Source: a virus
Taxonomy: Duplodnaviria > Heunggongvirae > Uroviricota > Caudoviricetes
Virus record (IMG/VR): IMGVR_UViG_2565956721_000006
Length of the DNA: 6,702 bases
Direction: 5' to 3' (one strand)
Shown: positions 1-6,702 of the stretch, one piece after another
Layout of the letters: each line of letters begins with the position of its first letter
Numbering within the stretch: position 1 is the stretch's first letter
Notes under the pieces: model-generated
The model's input: the letters and a program-made list of their open reading frames with translations, nothing else
The model's database searches: none
Told to the model about the DNA's origin: nothing
Position numbers and translations under genes: made by a program

Positions 1-162
1 ATGCTGGCGAACCCAGACACGCAGAGTCTCCGGCGTACAGCCAATCTTTGGAGCAATGGAACAAATTGTCGCCCATTGTGAGTCATATTCGCTCTGACTT
101 TCCAGAACCATACGGACTGCCCGTTGACGGACTTCGGGGGAAAAACGAGTATTTTTAGTCAT
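1..162 (-). CDS. IS3-family transposase OrfA, N-terminal 54 codons (partial; continues past window start)
   Basis: Minus-strand translation from ATG (162-160): [54 protein letters not shown], recognised as the helix-turn-helix N-terminus of IS3-family OrfA. Below the length cut-off of the ORF track because it is cut by the window edge. Confidence 0.8.
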
Positions 163-216
163 CCTGTTTACCTCTTTCTCAGGAAGTTTAGTCTCCAGGA
201 TTCCCGGGGCGGTTCA
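1..216 (-). mobile_element. Partial IS3-family insertion sequence (IS629/IS1203-like), one terminal end at 216; rest lies beyond window start
   Basis: Minus strand from 216 reads TGAACCGCCCCGGGAATCCTGGAGACTAAACTTCCTGAGAAAGAGGTAAACAGG then ATG at 162. The 5'-TG terminus and leader before the transposase ATG match my recollection of the IS629/IS1203 end. Exact IS name needs an ISfinder search. Confidence 0.7.
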
Positions 217-540
217 AGTTAACGAATCAAACAAATCTTGCACATATTTTTCTTCTTTAGATTTGCGCTTCTGAGCAGCGAATACCTCAATTCTTTCAGT
301 CACAGCGTGATAAGCGGAATTAACAACGCCGTTAAGCACATAGCTAACGCAAAACAACAGGATGTAATACATCCAGTAATGAGGAAGGATTTCTGGATTA
401 TGCAGGTTTATCCATTCTTTTACGCTTACCGGCATAACAATAATCAATATGATCAGGATGATTAGCATATGAATCAACTGTTTAAGTGTCATTCCTTGCA
501 GGAAAAAATGCATTAGTTCCTGCCACCATGAGTTGTTCAT
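214..540 (-). CDS. sieB: Superinfection exclusion protein SieB, C-terminally truncated at the IS junction (108 aa)
   Basis: ORF-track protein MNNSWWQELMHFFLQGMTLKQLIHMLIILI... matches the lambda SieB N-terminus as I recall it; hydrophobic membrane segments present. No in-frame upstream start before stop at 582-580. Stop codon TGA (216-214) is the first three bases of the IS terminal repeat. Lambda SieB is substantially longer (about 190 aa, from memory). Confidence 0.75.
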   Translation of the reverse strand: MNNSWWQELMHFFLQGMTLKQLIHMLIILIILIIVMPVSVKEWINLHNPEILPHYWMYYILLFCVSYVLNGVVNSAYHAVTERIEVFAAQKRKSKEEKYVQDLFDSLT

Positions 541-683
541 CGGCGTTTCTCTTTTGCTCTCTGTAGGGGTGAATAGAGTTTATCCGATTTCTCGTTGTAG
601 GGGTACACGAGAACCACCGAGCCTGATGTGGTTAAAAGACAGGCACAATCTTTACTACCGCAATCCACTATTTAAGGTGATAT
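541..683. promoter_or_regulatory. Divergent intergenic region between sieB and orf28/ral; expected site of the sieB promoter; contains a 9-bp direct repeat TGTAGGGGT (562-570 and 596-604)
   Basis: Position between divergently oriented sieB and orf28/ral. Repeat seen directly in sequence. No confident -35/-10 assignment could be made by eye. Confidence 0.3.
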
Positions 684-770
684 ATGGAAGAAGAATTTGA
701 AGAGTTCGAAGAGCATCCTCAAGATGTGATGGAACAATACCAGGACTATCCGTATGACTACGACTATTGA
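684..770 (+). CDS. lambda orf28-like acidic 28-aa peptide, overlaps ral start
   Basis: ATG 684 to TGA 768-770 translates MEEEFEEFEEHPQDVMEQYQDYPYDYDY. Size and position (87 bp, overlapping ral start by 17 nt) match my recollection of the lambda orf28 annotation. Below ORF-track cut-off. Confidence 0.5.
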   Translation: MEEEFEEFEEHPQDVMEQYQDYPYDYDY

Positions 771-954
771 TACAAATCAATGGTGTGGACAATTCAAACG
801 ATGCAATGGATGCAAGCTGCAATCGGAATGCATGGTTAAGCCTGAAGAAATGTTTCCTGTAATGGAAGATGGGAAATATGTCGATAAATGGGCAATACGA
901 ACGACGGCAATGATTGCCAGAGAACTTGGTAAACAGAACAACAAAGCTGCCTGA
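754..954 (+). CDS. ral: Ral, restriction alleviation protein (modulates type I restriction-modification)
   Basis: 66-aa product MTTTIDTNQWCGQFKRCNGCKLQSECMVKPEEMFPVMEDGKYVDKWAIRTTAMIARELGKQNNKAA, essentially the lambda Ral sequence as I recall it; conserved position upstream of ea10. Confidence 0.9.
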   Translation: MTTTIDTNQWCGQFKRCNGCKLQSECMVKPEEMFPVMEDGKYVDKWAIRTTAMIARELGKQNNKAA

Positions 955-1088
955 TAGTGGCCTTTATTTTTGGCATAAATAACAGAATAAACACTGCACT
1001 GTGTATTCATTCCAACGAGTGAATACACGGAGCAATGTCGCTCGTAACTAAACAGGAGCCGACTTGTTCTGATTATTGGAAATCTTCT

Positions 1089-1116
1089 TTGCCCTCCAGT
1101 GTGAGGGCGATTTTTT
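1089..1116 (+). terminator. Putative intrinsic terminator between ral and ea10 (tL2-like position in the pL operon)
   Basis: Stem TTGCCCTC (1089-1096), loop CAGTGT, stem GAGGGCGA (1103-1110) with one G-U pair, immediately followed by TTTTTT (1111-1116), on the transcribed strand. Confidence 0.45.
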
Positions 1117-1136
1117 ATCTATGAGGATATGAATAG

Positions 1137-1505
1137 ATGTCAAACATCAAAAAATACATCATTGATTACGACTGGAAAGCATCAATAGAAATTGAAATTG
1201 ACCATGACGTAATGACAGAGGAAAAACTTCACCAGATTAATAATTTCTGGTCAGACTCTGAATACCGACTCAATAAACACGGCTCTGTATTAAATGCTGT
1301 ATTAATCATGCTGGCGCAACATGCTCTGCTTATAGCAATTTCAAGCGACTTAAATGCATATGGTGTTGTGTGTGAGTTCGACTGGAATGATGGAAATGGT
1401 CAGGAAGGATGGCCTCCAATGGATGGTAGTGAAGGAATAAGAATTACCGATATCGATACATCAGGAATATTTGATTCAGATGATATGACTATCAAGGCCG
1501 CCTGA
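1137..1505 (+). CDS. ea10: Ea10 early protein (lambda ea10)
   Basis: 122-aa ORF at the lambda ea10 position between ral and cIII; length identical to lambda Ea10 as I recall; acidic C-terminal half. Confidence 0.8.
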   Translation: MSNIKKYIIDYDWKASIEIEIDHDVMTEEKLHQINNFWSDSEYRLNKHGSVLNAVLIMLAQHALLIAISSDLNAYGVVCEFDWNDGNGQEGWPPMDGSEGIRITDIDTSGIFDSDDMTIKAA

Positions 1506-1530
1506 GCGCGGCGTTACCGCATACCAATTA

Positions 1531-1551
1531 CGCTTCACTCGAGGCGTTTTT
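1531..1551 (+). terminator. Putative intrinsic terminator between ea10 and cIII (tL3-like position)
   Basis: CGCTTC (1531-1536), loop ACTC, GAGGCG (1541-1546) with one G-U pair, followed by TTTTT (1547-1551); strong Shine-Dalgarno AAGGAG for cIII lies just downstream. Confidence 0.4.
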
Positions 1552-1577
1552 CGTTATGTATAAATAAGGAGCACACC

Positions 1578-1742
1578 ATGCAATATGCCATTGCAGGGTG
1601 GCCTGTTGCTGGCTGCCCTTCCGAATCTTTACTTGAACGAATCACCCGTAAATTACGTGACGGATGGAAACGCCTTATCGACATACTTAATCAGCCAGGA
1701 GTCCCAAAAAATGGATCAAACAATTATGGCTATCCAGACTAA
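1578..1742 (+). CDS. cIII: CIII, inhibitor of FtsH-mediated CII degradation
   Basis: ATG 1578 to TAA 1740-1742 translates [54 protein letters not shown] (54 aa), matching lambda CIII from memory. Preceded by AAGGAG. Missing from the ORF track because it is under the length cut-off. Confidence 0.9.
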   Translation: MQYAIAGWPVAGCPSESLLERITRKLRDGWKRLIDILNQPGVPKNGSNNYGYPD

Positions 1743-1854
1743 ATTCACTATCGCCACTTTTATTGGCGATGAAAAGATGTTTCGTGAGGCCGTCGACGCT
1801 TATAAAAAATGGATATTAATACTGAAACTGAGATCAAGCAAAAGCATTCACTAA
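1711..1854 (+). CDS. kil: Kil, host cell-division inhibitor
   Basis: Internal ATG at 1711 of the 1585..1854 track ORF gives [47 protein letters not shown] (47 aa), matching lambda Kil; overlaps the cIII stop and the gam upstream start as in lambda. Confidence 0.85.
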
Positions 1855-1929
1855 CCCCCTTTCCTGTTTTCCTAATCAGCCTGGCATTTCGCGGGCGATA
1901 TTTTCACAGCCATTTTCAGGAGTTCAGCC

Positions 1930-2226
1930 ATGAACGCTTATTACATTCAGGATCGTCTTGAGGCTCAGAGCTGGGCGCGTCACTACCAGCAGATCGCCCG
2001 TGAAGAGAAAGAGGCAGAACTGGCAGACGACATGGAAAAAGGCCTGCCCCAGCACCTGTTTGAATCGCTATGCATCGATCATTTACAACGCCACGGGGCC
2101 AGCAAAAAAGCCATTACCCGTGCGTTTGATGACGATGTTGAGTTTCAGGAGCGCATGGCAGAACACATCCGGTACATAGTTGAAACCATTGCTCACCATC
2201 AGGCTGATATTGATTCAGAGGTATAA
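1930..2226 (+). CDS. gam: Gam (GamS form), RecBCD nuclease inhibitor
   Basis: 98-aa product [44 protein letters not shown]... matches lambda GamS with a few substitutions. The upstream GamL start (ATG 1809) is in a different frame here (see findings). Confidence 0.9.
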
Positions 2227-2231
2227 AACGG

Positions 2232-3017
2232 ATGAGTACAGCACTCGCAACGCTGGCAGGGAAGCTGGCTGAACGTGTCGGCATGGATTCTGTCGACCCA
2301 CAGGAACTGATCACCACTCTTCGCCAGACGGCATTTAAAGGTGATGCCAGCGATGCGCAGTTCATCGCATTGTTGATCGTCGCCAACCAGTACGGCCTTA
2401 ATCCGTGGACGAAAGAAATTTACGCCTTCCCTGATAAGCAGAACGGCATTGTTCCGGTGGTGGGCGTTGATGGCTGGTCCCGCATCATCAATGAAAACCA
2501 GCAGTTTGATGGTATGGACTTTGAGCAGGACAATGAATCATGTACATGCCGGATTTACCGCAAAGACCGCAATCATCCGATCTGCGTTACCGAGTGGATG
2601 GATGAATGCCGCCGCGAACCATTCAAAACCCGCGAAGGCAGAGAAATCACGGGGCCGTGGCAGTCGCATCCCAAACGGATGTTACGGCATAAAGCCATGA
2701 TTCAGTGTGCCCGTCTGGCCTTCGGATTTGCTGGTATCTATGACAAGGATGAAGCCGAGCGCATTGTCGAAAATACCGCATACACTGCAGAACGTCAGCC
2801 GGAACGCGACATCACTCCGGTTAACGATGAAACCATGCAGGAGATTAACACTCTGCTGATTGCCCTGGACAAAACATGGGATGACGACTTATTGCCGCTC
2901 TGTTCCCAGATATTTCGCCGCGACATTCGCGCATCGTCAGAACTGACACAGGCCGAAGCAGTGAAAGCTCTTGGATTCCTGAAACAGAAAGCCACTGAGC
3001 AGAAGGTGGCAGCATGA
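2232..3017 (+). CDS. bet: Bet (Red-beta) single-strand annealing recombinase
   Basis: 261-aa product [66 protein letters not shown]... recognised as lambda Bet; ATGA start/stop overlap with exo at 3014-3017. Confidence 0.95.
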
Positions 3018-3694
3018 CACCGGACATTATCCTGCAGCGTACCGGGATCGACGTGAGAGCTGTCGAACAGGGGGATGATGCATGGCACAAATTACGGCTC
3101 GGCGTCATCACCGCTTCAGAAGTTCACAACGTGATAGCAAAGCCCCGCTCAGGAAAGAAGTGGCCTGACATGAAAATGTCCTACTTCCACACCCTGCTGG
3201 CTGAGGTTTGCACCGGTGTGGCTCCGGAAGTTAATGCTAAGGCGCTGGCGTGGGGAAAACAGTACGAGAACGACGCCAGAACCCTGTTTGAATTCACTTC
3301 CGGCGTGAATGTTACTGAATCCCCGATCATCTATCGCGACGAAAGTATGCGCACCGCCTGCTCTCCCGATGGTTTATGCAGTGACGGCAATGGCCTTGAG
3401 CTGAAATGCCCGTTTACCTCCCGGGATTTCATGAAGTTCCGGCTCGGTGGTTTCGAGGCCATAAAGTCGGCTTACATGGCCCAGGTGCAGTACAGCATGT
3501 GGGTGACACGAAAAGATGCCTGGTACTTTGCCAACTATGACCCACGAATGAAGCGTGAAGGCCTGCATTATGTCGTGGTTGAGCGGGATGAAAAGTACAT
3601 GGCGAGTTTTGACGAGATGGTGCCGGAGTTCATCGAAAAAATGGACGAAGCACTGGCTGAAATTGGTTTTGTATTTGGAGAGCAATGGCGATGA
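3014..3694 (+). CDS. exo: Exo (Red-alpha) 5'-3' dsDNA exonuclease
   Basis: 226-aa product [65 protein letters not shown]... recognised as lambda Exo; the same length as lambda Exo. Confidence 0.95.
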
Positions 3695-3873
3695 CCCATC
3701 CTCACGATAATATCCGGGTAGGCGCGATCACTTTCGTCTACTCCGTTACAAAGCGAGGCTGGGTATTTCACGGTCTTTCTGTTATCCGAAATCCGCTGAA
3801 AGCCCAGCGGCTGGCTGAGGAGATAAATAATAAACGGGGGGCGGTATGCACAAAGCATCTCCTGTTGAGTTAA
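3691..3873 (+). CDS. lambda orf60a-like hypothetical protein
   Basis: ATG 3691 overlaps the exo stop (ATGA); 60-aa product [60 protein letters not shown]. The track lists an earlier in-frame ATG at 3685. Position and size match the lambda orf60a annotation. Confidence 0.75.
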
Positions 3874-4037
3874 GAACGAGTATTGATTTGGCACATAGCC
3901 TTGCTCAAATTGGAGTCAGGTTTGTGCCAATACCAGCAGAAACAGACGAAGAATTTCATACGTTAGCCACATCCCTTTCACAAAAGCTGGAAATGATGGT
4001 GGCGAAAGCAGAAGCAGATGAGAGAGACCAGGTATGA
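3846..4037 (+). CDS. lambda orf63-like hypothetical protein
   Basis: 63-aa ORF overlapping the orf60a 3' end by 28 nt, the overlap I recall for lambda orf63/orf60a. Confidence 0.75.
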   Translation: MHKASPVELRTSIDLAHSLAQIGVRFVPIPAETDEEFHTLATSLSQKLEMMVAKAEADERDQV

Positions 4038-4047
4038 CAACCACTGA

Positions 4048-4230
4048 ATGCATTTTTCTGGCAGCGGGCTTCATATTCTGTGTGCTTATGCTTGCCGACA
4101 TGGGGCTTGTTCAGTGACACCTCAGCAAGAAAACGCCCTTCGCAGCATTGCCCGTCAGGCTAATTCTGAAATCAAAAAAGTCAGACAGCAGTTTCCAAAA
4201 ACGTCAATGACATTTGCCGTAGCGTACTGA
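4048..4230 (+). CDS. Hypothetical 60-aa ORF in the orf61-equivalent region; reading frame uncertain
   Basis: Track ORF MHFSGSGLHILCAYACRHGACSV...; an ATG at 4018 (expected lambda orf61 start) runs into TGA at 4045-4047 after 9 codons. A competing frame (4034..4117) encodes the hydrophobic peptide MTTTECIFLAAGFIFCVLMLADMGLVQ. Coding assignment here is ambiguous. Confidence 0.3.
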   Translation: MHFSGSGLHILCAYACRHGACSVTPQQENALRSIARQANSEIKKVRQQFPKTSMTFAVAY

Positions 4231-4423
4231 AGAAGCACCGCGAAACGGTAACGCTGAAGGGATTCACACCGACTCATTTAAGCCTGGCAATCGGCATGTT
4301 AAACGGCGTCTTTAAGGAACGATGAACATGAAAAGCAAAATTATCAGGGAGCTACAGGCTCCTTTTTTATTGTTCGCATTCACCCTCAAGCGTATTAACC
4401 AACAGTTCAGGGATTAATGAAAG

Positions 4424-4645
4424 ATGGCAGACATCATTGATTCAGCATCAGAAATAGAAGAATTACAGCGCAACACAGCAATAAAAATGCGCCGCCTGAA
4501 CTACCTGGCTGTATCTGCCACTCATTGTTGTGAGTGTGGCGATCCGATAGATGAACGAAGACGCCTGGCCGTTCAGGGTTGTCGGACTTGCGCCAGTTGC
4601 CAGCAAGATCTGGAGCTTATCCGCAAACAAAGGGGGATTAAGTGA
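4424..4645 (+). CDS. TraR/DksA-family C4 zinc-finger protein (lambda Orf73-like RNA polymerase-binding regulator)
   Basis: 73-aa product with CxC-x14-CxxCxxC (CCEC...CRTCASC) and GDPIDERRR motif resembling F-plasmid TraR CEACGNPIPEARRK; located where lambda encodes Orf73, just upstream of ea22. Confidence 0.75.
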   Translation: MADIIDSASEIEELQRNTAIKMRRLNYLAVSATHCCECGDPIDERRRLAVQGCRTCASCQQDLELIRKQRGIK

Positions 4646-4971
4646 TGGCTAACCTGCAACTTGCTGTTAAAAGTGAATACTTCGATGCCATGATTCGCGG
4701 AGAGAAAACGGAAGAGTATCGCTTGTGTAATGACTACTGGAATAAGCGAATTATGTTCCGGGAATATGACCGCCTGATTATCACAAAGGGATATCCGAAG
4801 CGCGACGATTCCAGTCGCAGAATTGATGTTCCGTATGACGGATATGAAGTGAAGACAATCACACATCCGCACTTTGGCGATAAACCGGTAAAGGTGTTCG
4901 CTATAAAGGTGAATATCAGCACTGAATATCAATCCGCACAACACAAGGTCAAGAATGTTCAGAGTGATTGA
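4645..4971 (+). CDS. ea22-like N-terminal ORF with ASCH/PUA-like motif (GxKxxExR)
   Basis: ATG 4645 overlaps the orf73 stop (TGATG); the track starts at GTG 4642. Product MANLQLAVKSEYFDAMIRGEKTEEYR... contains RGEKTEEYR, which fits the ASCH signature GxKxxExR. Start coincides with the lambda ea22 start by coordinate correspondence. Confidence 0.55.
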   Translation: MANLQLAVKSEYFDAMIRGEKTEEYRLCNDYWNKRIMFREYDRLIITKGYPKRDDSSRRIDVPYDGYEVKTITHPHFGDKPVKVFAIKVNISTEYQSAQHKVKNVQSD

Positions 4972-5194
4972 CCCTAACACCTGGTACGTCGACCACCACG
5001 GCACTCCCTGCAAAATCCTGCGTTCTACCCACAACAAAGTTCACTACATCCGAAAAGGCAGAACATGTATCGCCAGCATGTTCCGCTTTAATCATGACTT
5101 TGAACCTGTGAATAAAGCTGATGCAGATCGGATAGCAGAAGAGATCGAAACGGCAGAACACATTAAGAAGTTACGTGACATGCGCAGGAAATAG
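4955..5194 (+). CDS. ea22-like C-terminal ORF (+1 frame relative to 4645..4971), possible frameshifted continuation
   Basis: 79-aa ORF MFRVIDPNTWYVDHHG... with helical charged C-terminus. Its frame is open upstream to 4913 and overlaps the preceding ORF. Combined span 4645..5194 is 550 bp against 549 bp for lambda ea22 (from memory). Confidence 0.45.
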   Translation: MFRVIDPNTWYVDHHGTPCKILRSTHNKVHYIRKGRTCIASMFRFNHDFEPVNKADADRIAEEIETAEHIKKLRDMRRK

Positions 5195-5333
5195 AAAAAT
5201 TGATAAATTCAATACTGCATTTCTCAGCATTAAATTTATCTCTATGACCAGTCAAGAGATGTACCTGCCATGAGCTTAATATCATGTCAGATATATCGGT
5301 CACAAACTCCCTCAGCAGCTAAGAGGAGGACAA

Positions 5334-5570
5334 ATGTCTCGACTAATCACTTTACAGGACTGGGCTAAAGAAGAATTTGGGGACTTAGCACCAAGTGAGC
5401 GAGTTCTGAAAAAATACGCGCAAGGGAAAATGATGGCCCCACCCGCTATAAAAGTTGGTCGCTACTGGATGATTGACCGAAATTCCCGTTTTGTAGGAAC
5501 GCTTGCAGAACCGCAACTCCCAATAAACGCAAACCCAAAACTCCAAAGGATAATCGCTGATGGCTGCTAG
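5334..5570 (+). CDS. xis: Excisionase (Xis), lambda-type
   Basis: 78-aa product MSRLITLQDWAKEEF...PPAIKVGRYWMI resembles lambda Xis (MYLTLQEW...PPPVKDGREYLF). Strong SD AAGAGGAGGA at 5316-5325. 3' end overlaps the int start by 11 nt, as xis-int pairs typically do. Confidence 0.8.
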   Translation: MSRLITLQDWAKEEFGDLAPSERVLKKYAQGKMMAPPAIKVGRYWMIDRNSRFVGTLAEPQLPINANPKLQRIIADGC

Positions 5571-6702
5571 ACCCCGATCTCACAAAATCTCTATACCCAA
5601 TTTATATTGCAAATTAGATAAGCGAACCGGAAAGGTATATTGGCAATACAAACATCCACTATCCGGTCGTTTTCATAGCTTAGGAACTGATGAGAATGAA
5701 GCAAAACAAGTTGCTACTGAAGCAAATACCATTATTGCTGAACAACGTACCAGACAAATATTAAGCGTCAATGAGCGTCTGGAAAGAATGAAAGGCAGGC
5801 GCTCAGACATTACGGTGACAGAATGGCTTGATAAATATATTTCTATCCAAGAGGACAGGCTGCAACATAATGAACTAAGACCCAACTCCTATCGGCAAAA
5901 AGGCAAACCCATTCGTCTTTTCCGTGAGCATTGTGGAATGCAACACCTCAAGGATATTACCGCACTTGATATTGCCGAAATAATTGATGCTGTAAAGGCT
6001 GAAGGTCATAACAGGATGGCGCAAGTCGTGAGAATGGTGTTGATCGACGTCTTCAAAGAAGCACAACACGCAGGACATGTTCCGCCAGGATTTAACCCAG
6101 CGCAGGCAACAAAACAACCGCGAAATCGAGTAAACCGCCAAAGATTGTCACTGCCCGAATGGCAGGCAATATTTGACAGCGTAAGCAGACGGCAGCCCTA
6201 TTTAAAATGCGGCATGCTACTTGCTCTTGTTACTGGACAACGTTTAGGCGATATCTGCAATTTGAAATTCTCTGATATATGGGACGACATGTTGCACATT
6301 ACTCAGGAAAAAACCGGTTCAAAACTTGCTATTCCGCTTAACCTGAAATGCGATGCTCTGAATATTACCCTTCGTGAAGTTATATCTCAGTGCAGGGATG
6401 CTGTTGTTAGTAAATATCTGGTCCATTACCGTCACACTACCTCTCAAGCAAACAGAGGAGACCAGGTTTCTGCGAATACTCTGACAACGGCTTTTAAAAA
6501 GGCCCGGGAAAAATGTGGCATAAAATGGGAGCAAGGAACTGCGCCCACATTTCATGAGCAGCGATCTCTGTCAGAACGGTTATATCGGGAACAGGGTCTG
6601 GATACGCAAAAGTTGTTAGGCCATAAATCCAGAAAAATGACCGACCGATACAATGATGATCGTGGTAAAGACTGGATTATCGTAGATATCAAAACAGCAT
6701 AG
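5560..6702 (+). CDS. int: Tyrosine site-specific integrase (lambda Int family, non-lambda allele)
   Basis: 380-aa product; C-terminal catalytic motifs LALVTGQRLGDI, FHEQRSLSERLY, LLGHKS, RYNDDRG align with lambda Int R212, H308/R311, H333 and Y342 blocks. N-terminal half differs from lambda Int. Window ends at its stop codon. Confidence 0.95.
   Translation: MAARPRSHKISIPNLYCKLDKRTGKVYWQYKHPLSGRFHSLGTDENEAKQVATEANTIIAEQRTRQILSVNERLERMKGRRSDITVTEWLDKYISIQEDRLQHNELRPNSYRQKGKPIRLFREHCGMQHLKDITALDIAEIIDAVKAEGHNRMAQVVRMVLIDVFKEAQHAGHVPPGFNPAQATKQPRNRVNRQRLSLPEWQAIFDSVSRRQPYLKCGMLLALVTGQRLGDICNLKFSDIWDDMLHITQEKTGSKLAIPLNLKCDALNITLREVISQCRDAVVSKYLVHYRHTTSQANRGDQVSANTLTTAFKKAREKCGIKWEQGTAPTFHEQRSLSERLYREQGLDTQKLLGHKSRKMTDRYNDDRGKDWIIVDIKTA

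Follow-up and report, generated by a model that had tools for sequence, protein, structure and literature searches.

The lambdoid early-left region studied here raises the question of where its similarity to phage lambda ends, from which phage its distal excisionase and integrase genes derive, and at which chromosomal site they would act. We analysed a stretch of 6,702 nucleotides from a virus of the class Caudoviricetes (IMG/VR record IMGVR_UViG_2565956721_000006), referred to below as the window. A preliminary description, made from the sequence alone, had proposed that lambda homology extends through an ea22-like region to about position 5195, and that an AT-rich spacer there leads into an xis-int pair swapped in from another lambdoid lineage with a different attachment site. 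Our analysis indicates that positions 5195..6702 are the integration-excision module of phage 21, made up of an AT-rich leader, xis and int and placed promoter-distally in a lambda-like pL operon. We assign this reading a probability of roughly 95%.

The list of open reading frames (ORFs), Pfam searches and comparison with annotated phages show that the window genes are co-directional (plus strand) and make up a single lambdoid early-left operon (Table 1). The xis and int ORFs overlap by 11 nt, and the last base of the window is the end of the int stop codon. The preliminary description placed both genes correctly: the ORFs are real and are recognised as excisionase and integrase in Pfam and PHROG. 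The length and AT-richness that it reported for the spacer were confirmed as well. Elsewhere in the operon, the Rfam family Lambda_thermo, the cIII thermoregulator RNA, matches positions 1565..1623 on the plus strand (88.5 bits, E = 3e-21), just 5' of the cIII start and overlapping that start. It was the sole Rfam match at a permissive E-value, with none in 5195..6702. Relative to lambda, orf61 (approximately 4018..4230) shows an apparent frameshift near its 3' end, tblastn giving two frames, and RefSeq annotates the identical orf61 locus of UTI89 as 'cell division protein ZapA, frameshifted'.

Table 1. Features of the window and mosaic joints discussed in the text, in window coordinates.
Feature	Position	Strand	Details
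sieB, truncated	214..540	-	108-aa ORF remaining
ral, ea10, cIII, kil, gam, bet, exo, then orf60a, orf63, orf61	5' of orf73	+	
orf73, TraR/DksA-type zinc-finger protein, 73 aa	4424..4645	+	Pfam zf-dskA_traR, E = 7e-9
Mosaic joint relative to lambda	4630..4649		blastn end-point 4635 = lambda 30402, 7 nt from ea22 start
ASCH-like ORF	4642..4971	+	109 aa from GTG; 108 aa from ATG at 4645
DUF4222 ORF, 79 aa	4955..5194	+	Pfam DUF4222, E = 4e-19
46-aa ORF	5163..5303	-	annotated as hypothetical in PhiR63_2
Second mosaic joint	5184..5194		seen against 2G7b, Turner and ev243; homology ends ~10 nt before DUF4222 stop
AT-rich spacer, 139 bp	5195..5333	+	GC 0.367
Inverted repeat, 16 nt, AT-rich	5202..5240		88% complementary, 7-nt loop; directly 3' of DUF4222 stop
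xis, excisionase, 78 aa	5334..5570	+	phage 21 Xis, Pfam Exc, PHROG 629
int, tyrosine integrase, 380 aa	5560..6702	+	phage 21 Int, Pfam domains

Sensitive blastn recovered the homology to lambda as a single block, in which window positions 561..4635 correspond to lambda 34480..30402 at 97.2% identity. Past 4635, DNA similarity to lambda is limited to a 60-nt stretch at 73% inside int. At the DNA level, orf73 is the last gene with homology to lambda, and its product matches the translation of an unannotated orf73 in lambda; lambda Orf73 has been described (PMC9239242). In the junction alignment, identity decays across the last codons of orf73 and collapses after a shared AAGTGA, beyond which lambda enters ea22 at its GTG start whereas in the window the ASCH-like ORF begins. 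The match to the window stops at 4635 in lambda, 434, HK630 and many Stx phages alike. The lambda homology ends at the orf73/ea22 gene boundary, about 560 bp further left than had been proposed. The supposed ea22-like region is absent, and two unrelated genes, the ASCH-like and DUF4222 ORFs, stand in its place. Neither Ea22 nor Ea8.5 has any similarity in the window (best tblastn E-values 1.0 and 0.49), which bears out the earlier statement that the lambda ea8.5 gene is missing. When the ASCH-like and DUF4222 proteins were compared with Ea22 and Ea8.5 by blastp, no match was significant (best E = 5.9, ASCH-like against Ea22).

The ASCH-like protein is 100% identical to CPT_21_37 of phage 21 and belongs to PHROG 625 (E = 2.5e-51). 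In RefSeq, the identical protein of UTI89 is called 'ASCH domain-containing'; the Pfam ASCH score is 14.3 bits, below the cut-off. This gene is found alone in Stx phages, ST104 and phiV10, which match the window over approximately 4646..4935 only. The DUF4222 protein is 88.6% identical to CPT_21_36 of phage 21. Phages 2G7b, Turner and ev243 are without the ASCH-like gene and have DUF4222 in common with the window up to 5184, past which 2G7b carries an unrelated integrase gene beside ompT (Int approximately 28% identical over a partial alignment). Throughout the phage comparison, the spacer, xis and int occur only together. NCBIfam returned no informative match for Xis or for the ASCH-like and DUF4222 proteins. 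In the comparison of phage sequences, each gene of this region thus behaves as a module of its own, with joints between orf73 and the ASCH-like gene (approximately 4635-4649), between the ASCH-like gene and DUF4222 (approximately 4935-4951), and between DUF4222 and the spacer-xis-int unit (approximately 5184).

These observations bear on a simpler scheme, in which a lambda-like block would run through an ea22-like gene to 5194 and the spacer would be the sole joint, with foreign xis-int inserted there. Such a scheme accommodates the loss of homology at 5184 in 2G7b, Turner and ev243 and the constant association of the spacer with xis-int. It conflicts, however, with the end of lambda homology at 4635, with the absence of Ea22 and Ea8.5 similarity anywhere in the window, with the occurrence of the ASCH-like and DUF4222 genes as independent modules in other contexts, and with the identical gene order of phage 21. 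The first two of these results already refute it, and we regard it as very improbable. The boundary originally drawn at 5195 nevertheless retains a meaning, as it is a genuine module joint relative to those three phages, but it is not the end of lambda similarity.

The phage 21 reading agrees with the closest relatives of the window. Megablast against phage genomes showed that positions 217..6702 are 100% identical to Escherichia phage PhiR63_2 (PV340574), and it gave 99.9% identity to phage ev207 (NC_049949). Classical phage 21 (OL657228) aligns with positions 660..6702 collinearly and without gaps, at 97.6% identity, and the DNA of 5195..6702 is 99.3% identical to GenBank entry M61865 ('Bacteriophage 21 icd pseudogene, xis and int'). 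Phage 21 has the same upstream order of orf73, ASCH-like gene, DUF4222 and spacer and, as in the identical relatives of the window, arm sites and an icd fragment 3' of int. Since phage 21 already possesses this gene order, the arrangement is not a new recombinant. The idea of a swapped-in module with another attachment site therefore stands insofar as xis-int is not that of lambda, belongs to phage 21 and has its predicted attB in icd.

The window phage differs from phage 21 by three conservative substitutions in Int (L199P, E206D, K316R), by a patch of mismatches across the 3' half of DUF4222, by divergence in the pL operon further left and, as judged from the identical relative PhiR63_2, by its immunity region. 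Divergence from phage 21 amounts to approximately 3% left of position 4400 and to at most 1% right of it. Within the DUF4222 patch there are 13 mismatches in 5001..5200, with 0-2 in the flanking bins, and the DUF4222 allele of the window is closer to that of phage 2G7b (97.4%) than to that of phage 21; it looks like a small recombination patch.

PhiR63_2 and UTI89 (100%) and ev207 (99.9%) share the sequence over 217..6702 or 1195..6702, and the prophages of UTI89, APEC O18, IHE3034 and NC101 (NC-SV) are integrated at icd, NC-SV being likened to the window phage by its published description only. The PhiR63_2, ev207 and icd-prophage records differ from the window in being without the insertion sequence end at positions 1..216. 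We also considered whether the window contains svsR, the small RNA of the related NC-SV prophage, and rejected this, as svsR sits in cI, outside the window. Among 5,426 complete E. coli genomes, the xis-int module was detected in 1,680. The feature is thus already known and very common, an instance of ordinary lambdoid mosaicism shared by roughly one in three of those genomes, and the phage 21 module is among the oldest known alternative lambdoid integration modules.

Base composition had been offered as a further sign of module exchange. It is correct that int is more AT-rich than bet and exo (GC 0.434 and GC3 0.381, versus GC 0.52 and GC3 0.58-0.61). Lambda's own int, however, shows an equal contrast (GC 0.450 and GC3 0.409, versus 0.52 and 0.55-0.61 for its bet and exo), so that the drop in GC is common to this region in both and is, alone, no evidence of module replacement.

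That Int and Xis differ from their lambda counterparts was confirmed: identity amounts to 34.8% for Int and to 21% for Xis (blastp E = 0.03-0.04 for Xis), far from the near-identity that would mark lambda's own proteins. The family to which they are closest, which the preliminary description had left to be found, is that of phage 21, with attB in icd. Xis is 100% identical to phage 21 Xis and 36% identical to XisE of the cryptic prophage e14. It matches the Pfam Exc family (PF07825) over residues 5-73 with 26.5 bits, slightly above the cut-off of 23, and PHROG 629 (excisionase) with E = 5e-36; a sequence search of the PDB returned no match to a solved structure. Given the weak Pfam score, we classify Xis as a putative distant member of the lambda Xis/Exc family.

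Int is 99.2% identical to phage 21 Int and 60.5% identical to e14 IntE. Its N-terminus matches the Pfam family Arm-DNA-bind_1 (PF09003; residues 1-71, 98.8 bits, E = 2e-28) and its C-terminus Phage_integrase (PF00589; 84.6 bits, E = 9e-24), while the central part reaches 20.4 bits for Phage_int_M, under the 27-bit cut-off. The full length of Int aligns to the lambda Int structures 1Z1B, 1Z1G and 5J0N; with phmmer, one unbroken alignment pairs residues 5-378 with lambda Int 4-356 in 1Z1B and 5J0N. Residues R228, H332, R335 and Y364 are invariant relative to lambda Int, and both the Lys of the beta-hairpin (EKTGSK) and the His in LLGHKS have aligned counterparts there, so that the catalytic set R-K-H-R-H-Y is complete in the alignment. 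Judged by these alignments, Int is predicted to be a three-domain, lambda-type heterobivalent tyrosine integrase.

The attachment site was sought around the 3' end of int. We searched for arm-type repeats inside the window and found none. In phage 21, PhiR63_2 and UTI89, three TTTTGGGGAA repeats start +12, +25 and +37 nt past the int stop; a GC-rich hairpin terminator comes next, and from +114 the opposite strand holds the 3' end of icd. The UTI89 int, identical to that of the window, is convergent with icd, and 113 bp separate the 3' ends of the two genes. Free phage 21 includes a 164-nt segment from the 3' end of icd, and it parts from the UTI89 chromosome approximately 277 nt past the int stop, right after CATATGGCGCAGCA; this point of divergence bounds the crossover region. 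From the arm sites and icd junction seen in identical or near-identical relatives, attP probably lies just beyond the window, which ends at the int stop, and identical copies of the module point to the 3' end of icd as its attB.

The association with icd is not confined to these copies. We sampled 80 loci with Int homologues (51-100% identity) in other genomes, mostly Enterobacterales. An Icd-coding match lies downstream of int in 60 of these loci, and in 50 of the 80 it is 105-174 bp away. Members of the phage 21/e14 Int family with 51-84% identity adjoin icd in Kosakonia, Proteus, Providencia, Xenorhabdus, Pectobacterium, Klebsiella and Serratia, among other genera. At five of the homologue loci, only the C-terminal ~55-60 codons of icd are present beside int, a pattern that a phage-borne icd fragment or tandem elements would produce.

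Two database records touching on this site need comment. In M61865 the 'icd' pseudogene is annotated at 537..700, equivalent to window positions 5142..5305, over the end of DUF4222 and the spacer. The true icd fragment of that entry is at 2211..2374, and mirroring its coordinates gives those annotated (2910-2374+1 = 537). The 'icd' feature over the spacer is a mirrored-coordinate annotation error. The second record is USAL01000018.1, from a metagenome-assembled genome labelled 'uncultured Sutterella sp.', positions 1..4599. Its xis and spacer are 100% identical to those of the window, and its Int is all but identical, with one substitution visible in the translation. An E. coli-like icd of approximately 380 nt follows and then grades into a genome of 60% GC with rplM and rpsI; coverage is 3.3x. 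This is probably a chimeric assembly joined inside icd and not a real cross-class integration.

By analogy with the Int/Xis biology of lambda and with work on phage 21 and e14, a mechanism may be outlined. Transcription of xis-int would proceed by N-antiterminated read-through from pL. The N-terminal domain of Int would bind the TTTTGGGGAA arm repeats, the first of which begins 12 nt past the window end, and its core-binding and catalytic domains would carry out strand exchange at a core inside the icd 3' end; Int would thereby bridge the arm sites and the icd core in a tyrosine-recombinase reaction. Xis would bend the P arm and so favour the direction of excision. Because the phage supplies a 164-nt replacement of the icd 3' end, icd would be expected to stay functional after insertion.

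Two known systems help to place this module. The e14 prophage of E. coli K-12 has IntE and XisE of the same Int family and the same icd target, but its proteins are more distant from those of the window than phage 21's, its flanking genes are different and it is without an equivalent of the 139-bp leader. The phage 21 and e14 integrases reportedly recombine at one common attB and differ in the arm sites that they recognise. Lambda (NC_001416) shares the predicted three-domain heterobivalent architecture of Int, the overlapping xis and int genes that close the pL operon, and the lower GC content of int compared with bet and exo. It differs in the length of Int (356 aa versus 380 aa here), in the low identity of both proteins, in the arm-site sequence, in its attB between gal and bio versus icd here, and in carrying ea22 and ea8.5, in place of which the window has the ASCH-like and DUF4222 genes.

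The 3' end of the spacer is a strong xis ribosome-binding site, AAGAGGAGG. A search of the spacer and the start of xis for a sigma-70 consensus gave no promoter, the spacer yielded no plus-strand terminator, and no match to the CII box (TTGYN6TTGY or TTGCN6TTGC, at most 1 mismatch) occurs at 5100-5750; a lambda-like pI, the CII-dependent promoter for int, was looked for and not found. The spacer RNA folds into two hairpins with a minimum free energy of -32 kcal/mol (z = -2.65), and 3 of 200 shuffled sequences fold as well. In homologue loci where Int is at most 84% identical, the spacer sequence is undetectable, and it is unconserved outside E. coli; in e14, only ~36 bp lie upstream of xisE, with no spacer counterpart.

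These data were weighed against the proposal that the spacer is a functional regulatory element, acting as a counterpart of pI, as an RNA structure for processing or stability, or as the template of the 46-aa minus-strand ORF. Its co-segregation with xis-int, its predicted fold, and the annotation of that ORF as a hypothetical protein in PhiR63_2 would all agree with such a role. On the other hand, neither a promoter nor a CII box was detected in the searches above, the spacer matches no Rfam family and the 46-aa ORF no family of Pfam, NCBIfam or PHROG, conservation is lost in homologous loci and in e14, and a z-score of this size in an AT-rich palindromic stretch is weak evidence for function. 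We consider the proposal unlikely. A more specific version, in which the spacer is an undescribed cis-regulatory element (for example an int promoter that does not depend on CII, or an RNA structure that sets the ratio of Xis to Int), is more doubtful still; if true, it would explain why a lambda-style pI and CII box are undetectable. In our reading the spacer is the leader of the module, and we leave a small probability for a regulatory function.

At the opposite end of the window, positions 1..216 (to approximately 236) are the end of an IS3-family (IS629-like) element, which interrupts sieB at 216/217 and has thousands of counterparts in E. coli at 97-99% identity; from 217 onwards the window is homologous to PhiR63_2 and ev207. 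The interruption of sieB indicates that the window copy comes from a chromosomal prophage. That prophage might be decaying, although xis and int are intact. One could go further and suppose that the xis-int module itself is a decaying, no longer functional remnant in a cryptic prophage, a view with which the disrupted sieB and the apparently frameshifted orf61 would be in keeping. Yet xis and int are full-length, the catalytic residues are intact, and 217..6702 also occurs in PhiR63_2, whose database record is that of a complete phage genome and names the host strain; we therefore think this quite unlikely.

The phage 21 reading of 5195..6702 leads to a change of label. The window is correctly described as the early-left operon of a lambda/phage 21-type prophage that ends in the phage 21 xis-int genes, with a predicted attB in icd. 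Beyond this correct annotation its significance is slight, and the locus is a textbook case of lambdoid mosaicism in which the joints coincide with gene boundaries.
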